Of a DNA stretch of 31,498 bases, positions 7,713 through 21,815 are shown piece after piece; the first letter of the stretch is position 1; each line of letters begins with the position of its first letter. The notes beneath the pieces are model-generated. The model saw nothing but the letters and a program-made list of their open reading frames with translations, had not been told where the DNA came from and searched no databases. The DNA comes from Thermoplasmatota archaeon (GTDB taxonomy: Archaea; Thermoplasmatota; Penumbrarchaeia; Penumbrarchaeales; Penumbrarchaeaceae). A program made the translations under genes and the position numbers. Where the stretch lies: positions 1-31,498 of the forward strand of contig JAUVCY010000001.1 of the NCBI GenBank assembly GCA_030595585.1, read 5' to 3'.

Positions 7713-10700
7713 TCAATCGTCGAAGAGGTCGTCCGCAAGCTCGTCCAGGTCGTCTGAAAGCAGTGTGGGAACCTCCGCCATCGGAGGCGATACGACCACG
7801 ATCTCATCCTCCTCCTCCGAGTCGACACTTTCCTCAAGGTAGCCGCCTTGAGGGTCAGACGAAACTACCGTTTCGTCCAAATCTTCCCTATCCTGCATCT
7901 TGCGTGCGATGTCCCCCTCCACATCCGACGGTACGGGCGGGGCCACTATGGCCTCCTCCTCCTCCTCCTCCTCTTCGAACGTCTCGGTGGTGAGCGCCCT
8001 GGCCTCAAGCGGCCTGTTCGTTCCCACCTGCTCCACCATCTCCTTCTGGCGTTTTTCCTGTATCTTGATGAACGCCCCATACAGCACGATCATGACCATG
8101 ACCAGCACGATCATGATGAAGATGAACGAGTTCTGGTCGCTGTTGTCCCTCTCCTCCACAAGAAGCATGAACGAGCCGGCCGTGGTGGCCCCGTGTTCAT
8201 CCGTGACCCAGATATCAACCTTGTATTCCCCCGGCTTCGCATCGGACGGAACCTTGTAGAGGAAACTGGTGGAATTCGAGGTGAAGTTATATTTATCCCA
8301 TTCCATGTATATTGTGAATTCCACATCAAGGTCCACATCCCAGATGGAGAGTTCGATAAGCTCACTGGACCCCTGGGTGCAGTTCACCTGTGGGATCTCC
8401 TCGATGGTAGGGGGATCATTCGTCTGTGTCACCTCGAGCCTCATGATGTAGGTGGCGTTCAGCCCCTCGCTGTCATACGCCGTGAACGTGATCAGCGACT
8501 CACCCACGAGATCATCATCGGGTGAGATCGATATATTGAAACCTTTTTCGATATCCTCATGATCGCCGATCTTCAGGTCCATCATGTTGGACGTAAGGGT
8601 CAGCGATCCCGAATCGATGTCCCCCAGAATCACCGTGAAATTGGTGGTATGGTCCTCGCTCACCGTGAGGGTCTCGGGGCAGTAGAAGAACTCGGGTGGA
8701 TCGTTCACCGCCTCGACCCTGACCTGGATCGTACGCGTATCGAGGGAAGATCCATCCGATGCGGTAACGTTGAGCGCCCCGTTGCCGTTCCAGTTGGTAT
8801 GTGGTATTATCTCAAGTTCCATGCCCGTTATCACCGCATCGAAGCCCCCCTGTACGTCGCTGACCCAGGCTGTGATGGGAACCTCCGGGAAATTGTCATT
8901 GTCCCAGAGGTACGGCGAGAGGTCCAGTGTGCCGGTGTCCTGGGAGAGGGGCGTATCCTCCTTCAGAAGTTGATTGGGTATGGTGGTCCCTTTGAAGTAA
9001 AGGGGGTCATTGACCTGGACCCTCCTCTCGAGCACGTTGTCCGTAGTATCAGATTCGATCAGGACGTGTGAGGGCATATATGGGGGCGCCACCTCAGCCA
9101 TAATGATGCTGGAACCCGAGAGGATATATGAGGGGGGGAAGGTGAAGTTCAGGTCCAGGGTCTGGTTCACCCGAAGGATCGGGATCGGCCTGGGGAGGTC
9201 ATCCTTGGTCCTCATGTATCTCCCGTCCGGGGTGACCTCCAAGATGTTCAGGGTCACCACGAAATTGTAGAGGTCGACCGAGCCCGAGTTCCTGACCTTG
9301 AGATGGACGACGAGGTCCTTACCCTCACATGGGATGGCCGGGTTCAGGGTCATCTCCTGAAGGATCTCCACGTTCCTGTAGGAGACCACCTCGATCTCCT
9401 CGATCAGCGGGATGAACCTGGGATGGTCGATGGTGATGCTGAGGGGGTCCAGGCTTTCCCTGATCAGGATGTACTCGGCGACGCCCATATCATCCGTGGT
9501 CTTCCTGATGTAGAGCTCCGGGTCGGAGGGGTCTATCAACGTTATCAGTGCCCCCTCGACGGGAACGCCGGTGGCCTTGTCGTACACCTCCACCCTGAAT
9601 GTGTTGTTGTCCTGATCGTATGGGGTGGGGAGCGATGCTGAGAACGTCTTGGGCACGTCAAGCCAGATGGGCCCCTCCGGGTCTCCAAGGAGATTGTAGG
9701 CCAGGTTATCGATCCTGTGCATCCTGAACTCCTCGATCGTATAATCCCTCACGTCCCATATGTACTCCTCATACGCCGCCTTCTGCATGTAGAGAGCTTC
9801 CGCGGGATGCGATGTCACGTTGTATAACAGCTCGAAGTATTTCTGGGCCAACCACCAGTTGCCGTAGGAGCCCCCATCGATATACTCTCCCCTGTACGTG
9901 GTGGTCGTAGCGCCTATCAACCCTATCGCCCCTCCATTCGGGTTCCTCAGAAGCCTTTCCATATTGGTGTCGTCCTCCTCGGAGAAGTTGAGGGAATCAC
10001 AGTTGGAGATGTACACCAGGGGCACCCTTCTACCGTTCTCAATGGTCTCGGCCATCTCGTAATCGAAATAGTCTGCCTCGTCCAGCCAGTATGGGAGCGC
10101 CCCTCCACCCTCGCCCTTGTATTCCGTGCAGTTTCCATTGGAGTCGCCGTGACATGCGAGCAGGGCGGTGGAGAACCCCATCTCGAAGTAGGATTCGAAG
10201 GTGGTACTGTTCAGGGTATCGAAGAGCTGGGAGTATCCCCCGTACTGGAACTGCGGGTAATCGGCAAGGATGTACGAGGTCACGTGGTCCGGCAGCAGGG
10301 CATCCACCTTGGTGACGACCTCGTACCCGTTGTCCTTGTAGTCGTTGTATCCCTCATCCACCATCGTTGTATCCAGATTGTCCTTGATGTTGGGTCGATC
10401 CATCAGGGACCCCACGAGCAGCGCCGATCGCGCCCAGGACCCCACGGGGGGGTCGATCTCATAGCCGAGCTGTCTATCCACCATTATCGAGAGCTCCTCC
10501 ACGTTCGATGCGGGGAACCTGCCGACGTACACATCGGGGTTCCACTCGATCTCCCCCTCCTCACCGAACACCTCGTTCCTGCTGACATCGTCCCATGTCC
10601 CCTGCAGGTCAGCGTAGTAGTAATCGGTCAGAACGAAGTTCTTCTCGTTATCAACTGCGGGGTCGTAGGAGCCGTTGACGAAGGTGTTCCTCATGGGGAT

Positions 10701-11135
10701 GATCTCCCCGTCGCCCACGAGAAGGACCCATTTTAAGTTCATGTGATTCTTCCACATCGCCGTGATGAAGGATCTTATCTGCTCGGGTTCATCGCGTCCC
10801 CACGGCTCGTTCTCCGGTTCGAGGATCCCTTCAGGTCCGTTGAGGGGGATATAGGCGGCCTTCACGCCCTTGTTCGTCTTCCACTCGATGAGGGGGGCCA
10901 TGGTCTCGGCGAACTCCTGCGGGCCGATGGCAAGGTACTCAAGGCCGTTGATCAGGGGGACCTGATACTCCCCATCCCTTGAGGGGATATCCTCATTCAC
11001 CACGATCTCCGCCACCTCCTCCCCCATCGGGCGATCGCCCTGTGCCTGTACCGTACCTGTAAGCAAGGCTACGAGTAGAAGGGACGTTACGGCGCATATG
11101 GAAAGCACCCTGGATCTCGTTTCGGCCGAATGCAT
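7713..11135 (-). CDS. Membrane-anchored C25 (gingipain-like) cysteine peptidase with CARDB/Ig/cadherin-like domains, C-terminal TM helix and acidic tail
   Basis: C25 motifs YLAIGP...WKTNKG, WVLLVGD, TDYYYAD, VYVGRFP, catalytic His (ACHG, 10149-10151) and Cys (SNCD, 9999-10001), GAIGLIGAT, YNLLGDP. Then VRNSG (CARDB), VEAVNDPP / QTNDPP repeats, TM FIFIMIVLVMVMIVLYGAFI. Start ATG 11135 gives a signal peptide. Confidence 0.92.
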   Translation of the reverse strand: MHSAETRSRVLSICAVTSLLLVALLTGTVQAQGDRPMGEEVAEIVVNEDIPSRDGEYQVPLINGLEYLAIGPQEFAETMAPLIEWKTNKGVKAAYIPLNGPEGILEPENEPWGRDEPEQIRSFITAMWKNHMNLKWVLLVGDGEIIPMRNTFVNGSYDPAVDNEKNFVLTDYYYADLQGTWDDVSRNEVFGEEGEIEWNPDVYVGRFPASNVEELSIMVDRQLGYEIDPPVGSWARSALLVGSLMDRPNIKDNLDTTMVDEGYNDYKDNGYEVVTKVDALLPDHVTSYILADYPQFQYGGYSQLFDTLNSTTFESYFEMGFSTALLACHGDSNGNCTEYKGEGGGALPYWLDEADYFDYEMAETIENGRRVPLVYISNCDSLNFSEEDDTNMERLLRNPNGGAIGLIGATTTTYRGEYIDGGSYGNWWLAQKYFELLYNVTSHPAEALYMQKAAYEEYIWDVRDYTIEEFRMHRIDNLAYNLLGDPEGPIWLDVPKTFSASLPTPYDQDNNTFRVEVYDKATGVPVEGALITLIDPSDPELYIRKTTDDMGVAEYILIRESLDPLSITIDHPRFIPLIEEIEVVSYRNVEILQEMTLNPAIPCEGKDLVVHLKVRNSGSVDLYNFVVTLNILEVTPDGRYMRTKDDLPRPIPILRVNQTLDLNFTFPPSYILSGSSIIMAEVAPPYMPSHVLIESDTTDNVLERRVQVNDPLYFKGTTIPNQLLKEDTPLSQDTGTLDLSPYLWDNDNFPEVPITAWVSDVQGGFDAVITGMELEIIPHTNWNGNGALNVTASDGSSLDTRTIQVRVEAVNDPPEFFYCPETLTVSEDHTTNFTVILGDIDSGSLTLTSNMMDLKIGDHEDIEKGFNISISPDDDLVGESLITFTAYDSEGLNATYIMRLEVTQTNDPPTIEEIPQVNCTQGSSELIELSIWDVDLDVEFTIYMEWDKYNFTSNSTSFLYKVPSDAKPGEYKVDIWVTDEHGATTAGSFMLLVEERDNSDQNSFIFIMIVLVMVMIVLYGAFIKIQEKRQKEMVEQVGTNRPLEARALTTETFEEEEEEEEAIVAPPVPSDVEGDIARKMQDREDLDETVVSSDPQGGYLEESVDSEEEDEIVVVSPPMAEVPTLLSDDLDELADDLFDD

Positions 11136-11292
11136 GATCTGCCTCTTGACCTGTATTGTACCGGATGTGCAATAGATAACCATTTTGGTTAATTGTGTAT
11201 AGGATCCATCTTCTGGCTCCGCTCAGGGCCGTGCATCAAGGTTAAATCGTCCACCGTTCATATGGTGCCCCGAGAGCATAGAGGATGAAGAG

Positions 11293-12528
11293 ATGGCCAA
11301 AGAGGTCTACGGAACGGTGGTCCTTGCGGGGACGGCCCGAATAGCAAGCCAGATCAGGAGGGGAAAACGCAGAGACCTCTATCACAGAATGAGAAGACCA
11401 CATCTTTGGAAGATGGATACGGAAGCTCTGGAGGCCAACCTCGCCTCCGTGATCAACAGGGATGACTACATCGTGGGCGAGAACAAATCACTGCTCTACC
11501 TGCACCCTTCCCTCACCTCCGTCAGAAATATAAATTTCCTGAAAAGGGTCCTGTACTTCGCGGGGAAGACGGGGGACCGCCTCTACAGAAGGAACAAGCG
11601 TGATCTGCTGCTGTTCCTCTCCCGGGAGGGCAGGTCCCCGATCTCCCTGGTGATACAGAATTTGCTTCTATCCGATCACATCGATCCGGACCACCTTGTC
11701 GTGGTGGGGCCCAGGAGACAGCTGAAACACGAGCTGGAGCGAAGCGGTTTGGCCGGGGTCAGGGTCCTGGAACAGGGCAGCACCCTCGGGAGGAACCTCA
11801 TCAAGGGAAGGGAGGCGTTGATCGACGGATCATACGATGGGGAACATATCCTTTTCATTGGAGGGGACGTGCCGCTCCTTACCCCGAAGGGCATATCCGA
11901 TTTCATAGAGCGAAGCGACGTGAAAGCCTTCGAGGGCGATATCATCTGGGGGATGGGGAGCAGGGAACAGCTGGGAGAATATATCGTCGAGCACGACGTG
12001 GAACATCTGGGCTCCGTAGGGCCGAACCATCCAAAGAAGGGAAATCTCAACAAGTTCGGCATACCGCTTATCGACGACAGGGGGGTCTTCGGAAAGGGTG
12101 GAATGAGGAGAGAGCTCATGATGGGCAACCTGTTCCTGTACCGTACCTCATCGGTCAACCCAAAGCTGGTCGACCGGTTCTATTCGCTTCGCAAGATGGG
12201 CGCGAACCCGCTGGCCTACCCCTGGTTGATGTGGCACTTCGGTGCCCCACTGCTCAGGGCGGTCAGGTGGAAGCTCACGATCTCGGAGGCGGAGAGGGCC
12301 TTCTCAAAGAACGCCGGGATCGACCTGAGGGTGGGGTATGCCCCACCGGAGATCACCCTGGACCTGGACTCATATTCCGATCTCAGGCGGTTGAGCGGAG
12401 TATACTTCTCGAGAGAGGGGATGGACATCAACCTGGAGATGAGCTTCAGAAAGTTCCTCAGGCAGAAACGAAGGGAAAGGGGCGGACCCCTGGGCATCAG
12501 CAGGAAAAAAGTAAAAGGAGATGGATGA
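11293..12528 (+). CDS. MobA-like NTP-transferase (GT-A fold) family protein with two large N-terminal insertions
   Basis: VVLAG...GENKSLL, LVVVGP, EQGSTLGRNL, ILFIGGDVPLLTP, GNLFL, FYSLRK, PEITLDLDSYSDL. Confidence 0.75.
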   Translation: MAKEVYGTVVLAGTARIASQIRRGKRRDLYHRMRRPHLWKMDTEALEANLASVINRDDYIVGENKSLLYLHPSLTSVRNINFLKRVLYFAGKTGDRLYRRNKRDLLLFLSREGRSPISLVIQNLLLSDHIDPDHLVVVGPRRQLKHELERSGLAGVRVLEQGSTLGRNLIKGREALIDGSYDGEHILFIGGDVPLLTPKGISDFIERSDVKAFEGDIIWGMGSREQLGEYIVEHDVEHLGSVGPNHPKKGNLNKFGIPLIDDRGVFGKGGMRRELMMGNLFLYRTSSVNPKLVDRFYSLRKMGANPLAYPWLMWHFGAPLLRAVRWKLTISEAERAFSKNAGIDLRVGYAPPEITLDLDSYSDLRRLSGVYFSREGMDINLEMSFRKFLRQKRRERGGPLGISRKKVKGDG

Positions 12529-13906
12529 CCATTACCTGCTGATGAGCCCTTTCAGGTTGAGGGATCGGGATATGGGTGCACAGTTCTGTCAGCTGGAGCG
12601 GTCCCTGATATTCAATGAGGCAATGAGCCATACCGGTTTCGTTCACTACGTGGGAACCAATACGTTCAAGCTTTTGAAGTCCAAGTTCACGGAGGTCTAT
12701 GGGAGCTACGTTTACACCGTTCCACGCGACCTCCGCTCCTCGATAGATGAGGGCAGCTTCATATCGGTGGAGCCTGGACGTGTTTCCGAGAGGATCTCGG
12801 TGGATCGGGGCCGTTTCGTCAAGGGGAAGGAGGAGCCCAGGAAACTGCTGGTGGCCGAGGTGGAATCCGCGGCCCCTGCGGTGCTGGCCCTGCCCTCCCC
12901 CGAGCTTCCCAGGGACGAGTTCCTCGACAGGATATCGAGATCATGGAGATCTGCCCAGGAGGATATGCTGGACAAGGTGATGGCGCTTCTGATGGTGTCG
13001 GCCCCATCATCGCTGTACGGGGGCGGGGGCATCGGCTCGGAGGGGCTTGAGGTAACAAGGGACCTGTCCAAGGGGACGCCCCGTAACGTTGCAGATACCG
13101 TTCTTGCCCAGCTCCCCGCCGAGTTCCGGATAAGGTCCAGATCGCCATACTACTTCACCAAGGTGGATTCGCTCACCACCGTGAGGTCCATAGGGAGGAA
13201 CAGGTCCGATGAGGGGTGCTTCACGTTGGTCCATCCCCACCGTGTTACCGACGCGTGGACCAGGGAGAAGATACCCATCCAGCTTCCGTTCATCCTCAGG
13301 GAGGCCCAGTTCAGGGGCCGCCTTCCGGAGCTGGACCTGGACGTTCTGGATTTCCAGCTGACCGCGCTGTATACTCCTCCCCCGGCGGAGAACATGGTCG
13401 AGGAGATGATGGGCAGGGTGAAGAAGAGGGGAGAGTCCCTCATGTTCGACGCGGTCGGGCTGGGGCTGCCAGACCAGATGGCCTCCGTGAGGATCGCGTT
13501 ATCGCTGGCCAGGTTGAACGTTGGGAGGGTATTTCGCACGGGAAAATACGTGAGGCCCCTGGAGAACCCCCTGGACGAAGGAGAGCGGCTGTACTACGCT
13601 CTGATGGAGCAGGGAATGGAGGAGGTGGGGAGAAAGAAGGAGGAGGAGAGGTACGGGGGGATGAGGTCCCACCCCTGGAGGGAGAGGCTGAAGGACCTCG
13701 ACAGGAGGATATACTATCGACTGAGGATGTCTGCCGAGGAGACAGGTGTCGATCGGGTCCCCAGGGAGAGCATCATGCCTGATATCGAGAGAAGGACGAT
13801 AGACAAGGCGCTGGATCGGCTGAACCGGTACGGCTATATTCTGTTCATGAAAGGCGGCACGGAGATCAAGGTGGTGGTGGAATCCTCCCCCGAGGACCAC
13901 TCTTGA
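12521..13906 (+). CDS. Hypothetical protein, probable degenerate MCM-like (OB + inactive AAA+ + winged helix)
   Basis: The CDS is well supported (461 aa, host-like codon use, 8-nt overlap with upstream gene). MCM resemblance is by eye only: OB-like N-terminus, DKVMALLMVS, QMASVRIALSLARL, C-terminal IDKALDRLNRYGYI; no Walker A/B. Confidence 0.5.
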   Translation: MDDHYLLMSPFRLRDRDMGAQFCQLERSLIFNEAMSHTGFVHYVGTNTFKLLKSKFTEVYGSYVYTVPRDLRSSIDEGSFISVEPGRVSERISVDRGRFVKGKEEPRKLLVAEVESAAPAVLALPSPELPRDEFLDRISRSWRSAQEDMLDKVMALLMVSAPSSLYGGGGIGSEGLEVTRDLSKGTPRNVADTVLAQLPAEFRIRSRSPYYFTKVDSLTTVRSIGRNRSDEGCFTLVHPHRVTDAWTREKIPIQLPFILREAQFRGRLPELDLDVLDFQLTALYTPPPAENMVEEMMGRVKKRGESLMFDAVGLGLPDQMASVRIALSLARLNVGRVFRTGKYVRPLENPLDEGERLYYALMEQGMEEVGRKKEEERYGGMRSHPWRERLKDLDRRIYYRLRMSAEETGVDRVPRESIMPDIERRTIDKALDRLNRYGYILFMKGGTEIKVVVESSPEDHS

Positions 13907-13982
13907 TCTGAGCCGATACCTCGGCGAAGATAAGACTATTCTCCGGAATAGTCGTCATCTGAGCGAATACTTTCGCGAAGGT
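13906..13982 (+). ncRNA. Candidate structured 3'-UTR element: two covarying G.A-tandem hairpins flanking an 8-bp hairpin
   Basis: 24-nt copies ATCTGAGCCGATACCTCGGCGAAG (13906-13929) and ATCTGAGCGAATACTTTCGCGAAG (13957-13980); central GACTATTC-TCCG-GAATAGTC (13934-13953). Structure is seen directly; RNA function is inferred. Confidence 0.5.
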
Positions 13983-13998
13983 TGGATGAATCTACCGA

Positions 13999-15066
13999 TT
14001 ACTCCTCTTCGTCGTCTCCACCGCCAGCACCCCACCCGATCTTGTCCCAGTTCCTGGACAGTTCCGCCTTTATGCCGGGACCTATCGCCGATACCTCCAT
14101 CTTCTCCTTTCTGATCATCCTCTCGACGAAACGTATCCTCCGCCTCAACCCCGCCCTGTTGGCGTTCTGGATCTCCAGTCCCGGCCTCCTGTTCACCTCG
14201 ATGACCAGAACTCCTTTTTTATCGTCCACCGCCAGGTCCACGCCTGCAAAACCCATTCCCATGGCGTCCGAGGCGGCGGATGCCGTCTCCATGATCTCCT
14301 CCCACATGTTGAAGCCGAAGCCGACCAAGGAGCGCCCGGTCCCGGGATGCTTTCTGGAGCTTTTCCTGCCTATCGTTCCCGAGATTATACGCCCCTCCGA
14401 TATCGATATGCCTGCAGCGAAGGCGCCCTGATGGACATTTGCTTTGCCACCTGAACCCTTGGTGGGAAGCCTGGTCATCGCCATGATCGGGAATCCCTTG
14501 AAGATCACCACCCTGATGTCCAGAAGGCCCATCGTCGCCAGCTCCCTCAGCCTTCTGGAGAGGATGATCCTCTCCTCGATCATGGCGGTATCAGGGGTGC
14601 CTCCCAGATATCTGCCGTTGATTATCCTCATCGCATGGCGGACCAGATAGGGGGCGTCAACGCCCTTTCCCGATATGAGTATGAACTTCCTGGCAACGAT
14701 CCTCTGCACCACGAGGATCCCGGTGCCGCCGTGGCCCTGGCTGGGTTTGACGACGAACCCCTCTTTTCTGGTGGCCAGCCAATCCTGAAATGGTATCAGC
14801 TCCTCCTCGGAGGCCACCGTCATCAACGTCTCGGGGATCGGGATCCCCGCCTGGCCGAGTATCCCCTTCTGGTACAGCTTGTCCATGGACTCCATAAGGT
14901 CCTGGGGGTTGTACTTCTTCAGGTACCCCCTCCAGGTATCCTTTTCGAGTATGTCGCCCTTCCCGTAGAAAGAGACGGGAAGTCTCACGCTCCCCTCGCG
15001 CCTGAGCTCCCGCTGGACCTGCCTGAACCGGTAGGGCCTCCTTAGCAGACGCCTGAACCATCCCAT
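13999..15066 (-). CDS. ATP-grasp ligase, alpha-L-glutamate ligase-like (RimK-related / sugar-transfer-associated ATP-grasp type)
   Basis: KKYNP...DKL, GIPIPETL, FVVKPSQGHGGTGI, MIEERI, DIRV, AMTRLPT..SGGKANVHQGA, GVDL, VIEVNRRPGLEIQNAN. Start ATG 15066 after AGGAG. Confidence 0.88.
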   Translation of the reverse strand: MGWFRRLLRRPYRFRQVQRELRREGSVRLPVSFYGKGDILEKDTWRGYLKKYNPQDLMESMDKLYQKGILGQAGIPIPETLMTVASEEELIPFQDWLATRKEGFVVKPSQGHGGTGILVVQRIVARKFILISGKGVDAPYLVRHAMRIINGRYLGGTPDTAMIEERIILSRRLRELATMGLLDIRVVIFKGFPIMAMTRLPTKGSGGKANVHQGAFAAGISISEGRIISGTIGRKSSRKHPGTGRSLVGFGFNMWEEIMETASAASDAMGMGFAGVDLAVDDKKGVLVIEVNRRPGLEIQNANRAGLRRRIRFVERMIRKEKMEVSAIGPGIKAELSRNWDKIGWGAGGGDDEEE

Positions 15067-15148
15067 CCGCCTTCTCCTTCGAAACCTCAAGTTTGACCAC
15101 CAACCATACGATCGCAGCCTGGATGACCTTGGATGGACCTACTCTCGT

Positions 15149-21586: not shown

Positions 21587-21815
21587 GGATACCAACCTAA
21601 CTTTGACATATGGGCACAGATGAGTGTCAAAGCGAGGCCTCTCACAACTTCGACAGGCTCGGATCATATTATGTTATTGTGCCTGTCAAGGTTGGGATCC
21701 AGCCTAACTTTTACATATGGATACAGATGAGTATCAAAGTGAGGCCTCTCACAACTTTGACAGGCTAGGATCATATTATATTATTGTGCCTGTCAAGGTT
21801 GGGATACCAACTTAA
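21587..21815. repeat. Tandem repeat of a 107-108 bp hairpin-rich unit (2 full copies plus a partial third)
   Basis: Units start at 21587, 21695 and 21802; GACAGGC at 21652 and 21759 (period 107). Copies are highly similar and fill the divergent gyaR / AAA intergenic region. Confidence 0.92.

Follow-up and report, generated by a model that had tools for sequence, protein, structure and literature searches.

The twin hairpins found directly after the ORF at 12521-13906 in the window (the whole stretch analysed, 31,498 nt of contig JAUVCY010000001.1 of a Thermoplasmatota archaeon) are very probably two tandem copies of a genus-restricted, dispersed and codon-phased palindromic repeat, mobile in the manner of Rickettsia palindromic elements (RPE) or REP sequences. 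The behaviour of the family is that of selfish or mobile DNA. Copies of its unit have reached dozens of unrelated sites, tandem arrays lengthen and shorten by 51-nt steps, copies exchange units with one another, and within genes only those units persist whose orientation and frame give a short acidic serine-rich peptide, located in disordered tails and linkers. A first-pass annotation of the sequence had offered, as one of two readings, a small mobile palindrome under structural selection, and had held that many scattered copies would mark a REP/MITE-like repeat. That reading is upheld by ~40 copies per genome, strong covariation, 51-nt presence/absence differences and an empty allele at this locus.

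The two 24-nt copies originally reported lie at 13906-13929 and 13957-13980 and are identical at 19 of 24 positions, the five differences (positions 9, 10, 15, 17 and 18) being, as described, compensatory swaps at pairs 9-18 and 10-17 together with one loop change. Copy 1 does begin on the A of the TGA stop codon (13904-13906), an 8-bp hairpin with the loop TCCG was located at 13934-13953, and the three proposed hairpins are the exact RNA fold of 13900-13998 on the + strand (-35.4 kcal/mol, z -3.2); the - strand RNA fold of the same interval has -29.0 kcal/mol (z -2.2). The 24-nt pattern occurs twice in the window against 0.01 matches expected by chance. The length of the repeat had been misjudged, however, as the actual unit is 51 nt rather than 24 nt, and the middle hairpin, which is present, is not a separate structure and forms the second half (hairpin B) of unit 1. 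The suggestion that the fold is strand-specific held for the G.A tandem and the family-wide G.U wobbles and failed for energy. With DNA parameters the two strands differ by no more than 0.5 kcal/mol, and because these energies are near-equal strand specificity rests on the tandem and the wobbles. The label 'MCM-like' for the 12521-13906 ORF had to be dropped, since the ORF matches no Pfam family and has no PDB match better than E 0.4.

Repeat unit 1 (13906..13956, + strand) is defined by its sequence, its RNA and DNA folds and a covariance-model match of 68.1 bits (E 5e-14). Its hairpin A (13906-13931) has an AUCU/AGAU stem, a G.A/G.A tandem, a 5-bp GCCGA/UCGGC stem and the loop UACC, and its hairpin B (13934-13953) an 8-bp stem with the loop UCCG. 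It is identical at 50/51 positions to the orthologous unit in the congener G002, and this copy is non-coding because a TAG interrupts its reverse-strand frame. Unit 2 (13957..14007, + strand; defined by sequence and a covariance-model match of 61 bits, E 3e-12) carries a hairpin A at 13957-13982, with the 5-bp stem GCGAA/UUCGC and the loop UACU, and a degenerate hairpin B at ~13985-14005, the 3' arm of which consists of the final two codons and TAA of a converging ATP-grasp gene on the - strand; the unit overlaps the last codons and stop (13999-14001) of that gene. Unit 2 and the unit at the same place in G002 share only 34/51 positions in spite of 300-nt flanks that are ~98% identical, a mismatch that points to replacement or conversion of the unit. 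The two units sit exactly between the abutting stops of the convergent 12521-13906 ORF and ATP-grasp gene, as a structured spacer of 92 nt. Read on its reverse strand, the unit offers an open frame of 17 codons that continues the ATP-grasp ORF past the stop of that gene; the first-pass annotation had missed this, and likewise that most copies elsewhere belong to the coding parts of unrelated proteins. A degenerate third copy at 7815..7880 (+ strand; weak covariance-model match, 31.3 bits, E 1.4e-4) falls in the part coding for the C-terminal tail of a 1156-aa Peptidase_C25/Ig-domain ORF (7713-11183, - strand), to which it is antisense and in frame, and the orthologous site in G003 (L051) holds at least five full units and is 240 nt longer.

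Across the family the unit of 51 nt (17 codons) is composed of two adjacent hairpins, A with a 4-bp stem, G.A/G.A tandem, 5-bp stem and YACY loop, and B with an 8-bp stem and a loop that is usually TACY. The 5' head is conserved as ATCYGA, the unit running from ATCYGA to a terminal GTCGTC, and sub-modules of 15 nt and 36 nt are nested within the 51-nt tandem period. In an ungapped alignment (A2) of 84 units, from which all structure statistics were taken, 96.2% of paired cells were able to pair, compared with 84% in shuffles and 28-52% in slid controls. Two-sided changes were found at 13/17 pairs (169 cells), a level reached by 0/500 shuffles, and hairpin B, which played no part in choosing the aligned copies, covaries at 8/8 pairs. 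Wobbles (52 U.G at pair 2-25 and 24 G.U at pair 29-48) speak for the G.A strand, and in some family members Watson-Crick pairs take the place of the G.A pairs. A switch in which AGAU of one copy pairs with AUCU of the next had also been suggested; among 16 tandem neighbour pairs the cross-unit pairing of AGRU with the next AUCY (13-15/16) was inseparable from the in-unit pairing (15-16/16), and the switch was set aside. A CRISPR array was rejected on the grounds that the units are contiguous, with a 51-nt period and no unique spacers, the 27-nt 'spacer' being the conserved hairpin B.

The 24-nt pattern gave 27 matches genome-wide and none for a reversed control. Covariance-model searches found 45 matches in the source genome, 36-45 in each of four genomes of its Thermoplasmata genus and 7 and 3 in two sister genera, with no copies in 30 other genomes of the class, and a scan of 185,579 species genomes returned true copies only from these Thermoplasmata MAGs. 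Carriage by a virus or plasmid was considered, as a 25-nt pattern occurs in five viral and ~14 bacterial contigs; none of these passes the full covariance model, and the matches are due to chance. Many copies lie at contig ends. At least 17 copies in the source genome are intergenic and set within other repeat modules, forming tandem and mosaic clusters with other palindromic modules after stop codons.

Turnover is evident at orthologous sites. Four such sites in the congeners differ by exact 51-nt gaps or by having 0, 1 or 3-4 copies, differences that only a rooted species tree could polarise. At the junctions of filled and empty sites ATC or TCATC recurs in some cases and nothing in others, and some of the 'empty' sites could be precise deletions by slippage. 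For the locus itself a public cold-seep metagenome contains an alternative allele with an empty site, in which the segment 13909..14000 (92 nt) is absent: in DNA run X2 one 89-nt contig (53 + 36 nt; depth ~5), the only one to show this allele, joins 13908 to 14001, so that the TGA and TCA of the convergent stops abut directly. Over 13938-14004 the depth exceeds that of the flanks 4-8-fold, which is what a repeat would give.

Copies inside long ORFs account for 26/45 in the source genome and 38/66 units fetched from relatives, and these all run antisense to the G.A strand in a single frame; three more fetched units were called in a sense frame, two of them at the start of a contig and the third close to a contig end. 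The peptide of the coding frame, approximately DDESVDSSNLRxSIxSD, is acidic and serine-rich, with S16, S8, E3, S4 and S7 the best-kept residues, and this frame makes up only ~32% of all open frames across the units. Pfam scans of the host proteins found only their own unrelated domains, among them Kelch propeller, DnaJ, FKBP, an RNA polymerase subunit, KaiC-like and DnaA/Orc-like AAA proteins, HHH, TPR, C25 peptidase and Ig-domain surface proteins; the units are placed beyond these domains, in disordered tails and linkers. A different, coding copy of the unit is present on one RNA-library contig. The stem positions that covary coincide with the residues kept least well, namely position 12 (R/G/E) and position 15 (G/R/S/H). 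Non-coding copies with stops keep perfect hairpins, for instance hairpin B of unit 1 with its TAG, and Watson-Crick variants keep the hairpin while the peptide becomes PQGGDLED-like. The fold therefore outlasts the peptide, and the thing preserved is the nucleic-acid fold rather than the peptide.

The same observations bear on the idea that the family is a protein motif, an acidic, serine-rich stretch of 17 residues serving some function in its hosts as a linear motif or tandem repeat, the palindromy being incidental and the non-coding copies decayed. It would suit the shared frame and orientation of the 64 coding copies, a unit length divisible by three (likewise in the short 36-nt forms), the well-kept serines and glutamate and the continuity of the window frame with the ATP-grasp ORF. 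The placing of the covarying stems, the intact hairpins of stop-bearing copies, the PQGGDLED-like variants, the intergenic copies among other repeat modules and the functional disparity of the hosts make it very improbable indeed. A functional cis-acting RNA, whose G.A-tandem 3'-UTR hairpins bind a protein (L7Ae-like or other) or stabilise or terminate convergent transcripts, has rather more in its favour and is still improbable. The + strand RNA fold is strong and starts at the stop codon, the covariation and G.U wobbles favour the G.A strand, and 11/15 intergenic copies lie downstream of a same-strand ORF (on crude ORF calls), which leaves room for a role at the transcript level. Over half of the copies, however, are antisense to mRNA in coding regions, where the G.A strand would need antisense transcription, and the element is dispensable, being absent from a natural allele here and from orthologous sites in congeners. 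The dimeric protein-binding 3'-UTR element of the 12521-13906 gene that had been envisaged finds no support in the family, which is tied neither to that gene nor to the homologues of this or any other single gene. Rfam models run over 13600-14300 at E up to 10 gave noise only, C/D models scoring 10.6-12.8 bits against thresholds of 40-49 (best the C/D-box sRNA sR45, 12.8 bits against 40). In four metatranscriptome runs, in which almost none of the locus is present, the RNA-library contigs did not bridge the intergenic region. As for termination, the + strand has no oligo-T tract after the hairpins, and a hairpin and T-tract terminator was rejected for want of a T-run after either A hairpin; the sole, weak terminator-like score came from hairpin B of unit 1 with its T-rich tail on the - strand. 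The suggested kinship with K-turn, C/D and SECIS motifs was not borne out either. The likeness consists of two consecutive G.A pairs (5'-GA-3' on both strands) with helices on either side, but here they form a symmetric 2x2 loop that lacks the 3-nt bulge, Watson-Crick pairs can stand in for them, and a C box (RUGAUGA), expected in such a motif together with a D box (CUGA), is missing. A K-turn register with the upper stem as C stem, the loop GAA and then GA fits copy 1 only, most members having GAAGGU rather than GAAGAU; a SECIS element was discarded in view of the absence of an asymmetric GAA/A loop, and a BHB-intron in view of the absence of a 3-4-3 bulge-helix-bulge.

The third possibility is a non-autonomous relative of the REP/BIME-RAYT system or a palindrome derived from IS200/IS605, with a Y1 transposase reading an irregular hairpin on one strand. 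Both hairpins are indeed read from one strand, the G.A tandem is a conserved irregularity of the helix, YACY loops are kept in both hairpins, the tandem and mosaic arrangements with other palindromic modules are BIME-like, and filled and empty sites differ without classical target duplications. There is only a slender chance that this account is right, as the Y1/RAYT family PF01797, which was matched in control genomes, gave no match in six element-bearing genomes (G000, G001-G003, G005 and G015; MAGs 76-95% complete, in which repeats and IS elements assemble poorly), and TnpB (PF07282), the other transposase family covered by the searches, gave none in the source genome. A conserved GTAG-type 5' tetranucleotide is also lacking, the majority of copies are intragenic, unlike REPs, and the unit is strictly 51 nt and codon-phased. 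Of the MITE hallmarks, the unit ends are not mutual inverted repeats and no consistent target-site duplication was seen.

For a dispersed selfish palindrome the fold would most likely be kept on the strand with the G.A tandem, in single-stranded DNA or else in a transcript, and the units would spread by a hairpin-dependent step. This step might be carried out by a trans-acting enzyme, or might consist of template switching, slippage and ectopic gene conversion between copies, while effects on neighbouring transcripts, such as those of hairpins at 3' ends, would be a by-product. A more speculative and on balance unlikely extension is that an undescribed archaeal hairpin-specific mechanism uses the 51-nt unit as its substrate, acting on the G.A/YACY strand (ssDNA or RNA) and inserting or copying codon-phased cassettes, which would make the family a mobile element of a new class, for which no transposase is known. 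Were this true, the strict polarity of the 64 coding copies would reflect a transcription- or replication-coupled step and not only selection on the peptide. The family is a compact archaeal case. Its covariation is exceptionally clear, filled and empty alleles occur naturally and the copy number varies within genes such as those for an RNA polymerase subunit and surface proteins, and the family is tractable for studying spread without a recognisable transposase, the tolerance of proteins and the making of disordered acidic linkers. It also carries a warning for annotation, in that structured 'RNA motifs' next to genes may, even with perfect covariation, be repeats of this kind, and that MAG assemblies are broken by them.

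REPs lie outside genes, possess a conserved GTAG-like head and are accompanied by a RAYT gene. The present family resembles REP/BIME and BOX/ERIC sequences as short imperfect palindromes, tens per genome, with mosaic clusters after stops and compensated stem variants, and differs from REPs in its mostly intragenic copies, its ATCYGA head and the absence of a Y1 transposase from the genomes searched. PARCEL repeats share tandem intragenic organisation, dyad-symmetric coding DNA, a patchy distribution and signs of within-genome shuffling; they are, however, defined at the protein level as a 25-residue amphipathic repeat in long tracts of membrane-targeted proteins, whereas the present unit, which occurs in non-coding DNA as well, encodes a 17-residue acidic disordered peptide that is found, usually 1-5 times over, in unrelated proteins of the cytosol and the surface. 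In-frame palindromic repeats in protein genes are a textbook oddity of Rickettsia, and the RPE were reportedly described by Ogata et al. in 2000 (Science 290:347) and 2002 (Genome Res 12:808). A recent review of prokaryotic MITEs has nothing of this kind for archaea and describes RPE as dispersed palindromic repeats, intergenic and in frame in many unrelated genes, with a tolerated peptide and no known transposase (PMC10969869). The features of an RPE-like class were found here, namely a multi-copy dispersed palindrome, in-frame as well as intergenic copies in unrelated genes and presence/absence at orthologous sites between species, again with no transposase found. The likeness is one of behaviour, and there are differences: the host is archaeal (Thermoplasmata) rather than alphaproteobacterial, the unit has 51 nt and two side-by-side hairpins as against ~100-150 bp, and the 51-nt tandem arrays, the 15-nt and 36-nt sub-modules, the G.A tandem, the YACY loops and a coding strand antisense to the better-folding strand set this family apart.

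The hairpin region of the window fills the 92-nt spacer between the convergent ORFs 12521-13906 (+) and 13999-15090 (-). Two 24-nt copies, at 13906-13929 and 13957-13980, are identical at 19/24 positions; as the first-pass annotation had described, two compensatory swaps account for four of the five differences and the fifth falls in the loop. Copy 1 does begin on the final base of the upstream stop codon (TGA, 13904-13906) and the perfect 8-bp hairpin is present at 13934-13953. RNA folding of the + strand gave exactly the three hairpins proposed (-35.4 kcal/mol, z -3.2), the fold of the - strand being weaker (-29.0 kcal/mol, z -2.2). The middle hairpin exists, but not as a separate structure, as it is hairpin B of the first of two 51-nt units, each made of a hairpin A and a hairpin B. 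Unit 1 occupies 13906-13956 and unit 2 13957-14007, where hairpin B is degenerate and overlaps the end of the gene for an ATP-grasp protein (PF14397; the - strand ORF). The label 'MCM-like' for the + strand ORF gained no support from sequence, with no Pfam family at E <=0.001 and no PDB sequence match better than E 0.4.

Many scattered genomic copies had been expected of a REP/MITE-like repeat, and such copies were found: the genome holding the window (G000; 2.05 Mb, 339 contigs) has 27 matches to the 24-nt pattern, against 0 for the reversed control, and 45 to R1, a covariance model of the unit. Per genome, the four members of the genus have 36-45 R1 matches. Two sister genera, each represented by one genome, have 7 and 3, a genome from another family has 3 weak ones, and another 30 genomes of the class have none. 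A scan of 185,579 species genomes found multi-copy pattern matches confined to these Thermoplasmata MAGs; the isolated matches seen in bacteria and in five viral contigs fail R1 and were rejected. Metagenomes of cold seeps and marine sediments are the source of the DNA.

A hairpin B, typically GACGAATC-TACY-GATTCGTC, comes after hairpin A in almost all copies, and 84 units from five genomes align without gaps over 51 columns. Structure was counted on this alignment as ((((..(((((....)))))..))))..((((((((....))))))))... and standard pairs occupy 96.2% of cells, compared with 84% after shuffling and 28-52% with partners slid. Both-sided changes occur at 13/17 pairs (169 cells) and 0/500 shuffles reached the observed value on any structure measure. 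Copies were chosen by hairpin A, so that its upper stem is partly ascertained; its lower stem and hairpin B played no part in the choice, and hairpin B covaries at 8/8 pairs. YACY is preferred in the loops of both hairpins. An ACCGA-stem variant accounts for 11/84 units, its copies being near-identical.

The GA...GA tandem is invariant among the 84 units because the selecting regular expression required GA at both positions. The R1 census also yields members with TC for the 5' GA (G000 C135:1064-1114, C18:4243-4293 and C275:8209-8259), which forms Watson-Crick pairs and a continuous stem and indicates that the helix continues across the G.A tandem; the peptide encoded by these variants is quite different. 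Strand specificity stood in part. Pair 2-25 is U.G in 52 units vs U-A in 16, and pair 29-48 is G.U in 24; such wobbles are A.C mismatches on the opposite strand, so the strand bearing the G.A tandem is the better structured, but DNA nearest-neighbour energies scarcely separate the two. Short 36-nt (12-codon) forms (G000 C327:3728-3763, C211:15763-15797, C99:5048-5083, C209:2917-2952 and C242:7855-7890) are without the upper stem-loop (15 nt) of hairpin A, which slippage between two YGAR half-sites can explain. They are often in tandem with a full unit, and sub-module lengths are likewise multiples of three.

The unit can be read on its reverse strand as 17 open codons, with the consensus DDESVDSSNLRRSIGSD. 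In G000 26 of the 45 R1 matches lie within long ORFs, and every one of these is antisense to the G.A strand and in this one frame. The same holds for 38/66 units at loci from congeners, where three ambiguous units are close to, or at, the ends of contigs. Across units this frame makes up roughly one third of the open frames, a share too small for openness by itself to explain the bias. The host proteins are unrelated by Pfam domains and include Kelch propeller, DnaJ-domain, FKBP, RNA polymerase subunit, KaiC-like, DnaA/Orc-like and other AAA, HHH, TPR and Ig/fn3 surface proteins, and the units occupy their acidic tails and linkers. The Peptidase_C25/Ig-domain protein of ORF 7713-11183 (-) has a degenerate copy in its C-terminal tail, at 7815-7880; the G003 orthologue of this protein (L051) is 240 nt longer and carries at least 5 full units. 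At another locus (L090, G000 C173:4655-6949) one in-frame unit sits within the N-terminal portion of an ORF with RNA polymerase Rpb1 domain 5, an insertion into a core information-processing gene. Peptide conservation is lowest at the covarying stem positions and the fold is retained in non-coding copies despite stop codons; the persisting entity is the fold, not the peptide.

Many non-coding units sit inside another, larger palindromic repeat, ~107 bp long, with modules named X and Y (window 21587-21815; also G000 C93, C103, C204, C332, C32, C77, C131 and others). Its first long hairpin is TCCCAACWTTGACAG / CTGTCAAWGTTGGGA and another is CCTCACTTTGACA / TGTCAAAGTTAGG. The 51-nt unit often sits in the loop of the first, the empty form reading ...aatatgATCTGAGCCTGTCAAT... 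and the filled form having the unit flanked by two ATCTGA words. X/Y repeats form tandem and mosaic clusters, usually immediately 3' of stop codons, and many contigs end in the mosaic ones.

Orthologous sites vary in occupancy. A Kelch-repeat gene has a single unit in both G000 and G002, where G001 shows a gap of exactly 51 nt; a gap of exactly that length is also seen in G000 at a further site, which is filled in G001. An Ig-domain surface gene carries no unit in G001 or G002, one in G000 and three in G003, and at a fourth site the counts are 0 in G000, 1 in G002 and 4 in G003. At the window locus G002 matches unit 1 at 50/51 positions and unit 2 at 34/51, with three full stem swaps in unit 2, within flanks ~98% identical. 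Stepwise compensatory mutation was rejected on these swaps and flanks, which point to another family member having replaced or converted unit 2. In X2, DNA from a public cold-seep metagenome, an 89-nt contig runs straight from 13908 to 14001 with the entire element absent, and the convergent stop codons abut as TGA|TCA; this single low-depth contig is suggestive of an empty allele. Without the element the stops would form the palindrome TGATCA with zero intergenic spacer.

The unit is shown to be dispersed, phased with codons, maintained in structure and variable in copy number; units have been replaced by others, and inside genes they keep to one polarity and one frame. The repeat probably spread by hairpin-dependent copying, via a trans factor or via template switching, slippage and ectopic conversion; inside genes selection would then retain the acidic reading frame only. 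Intergenic copies may have a transcript-level role, but none is required.

The unit fails the defining tests of REP/RAYT, with no Y1/RAYT gene found in six element-bearing genomes, and those of MITEs, with neither terminal inverted repeats nor regular target duplication at the junctions examined; no TnpB gene was found in G000. It also fails those of terminators, CRISPR, and the K-turn or C/D motifs with which it had been compared in the first-pass annotation. No comparable element was found for this archaeal clade in the literature searched, and a review of prokaryotic MITEs gives nothing of the kind for archaea (PMC10969869). The systems that work alike are the Rickettsia palindromic elements and the REP/BOX-type mosaics.
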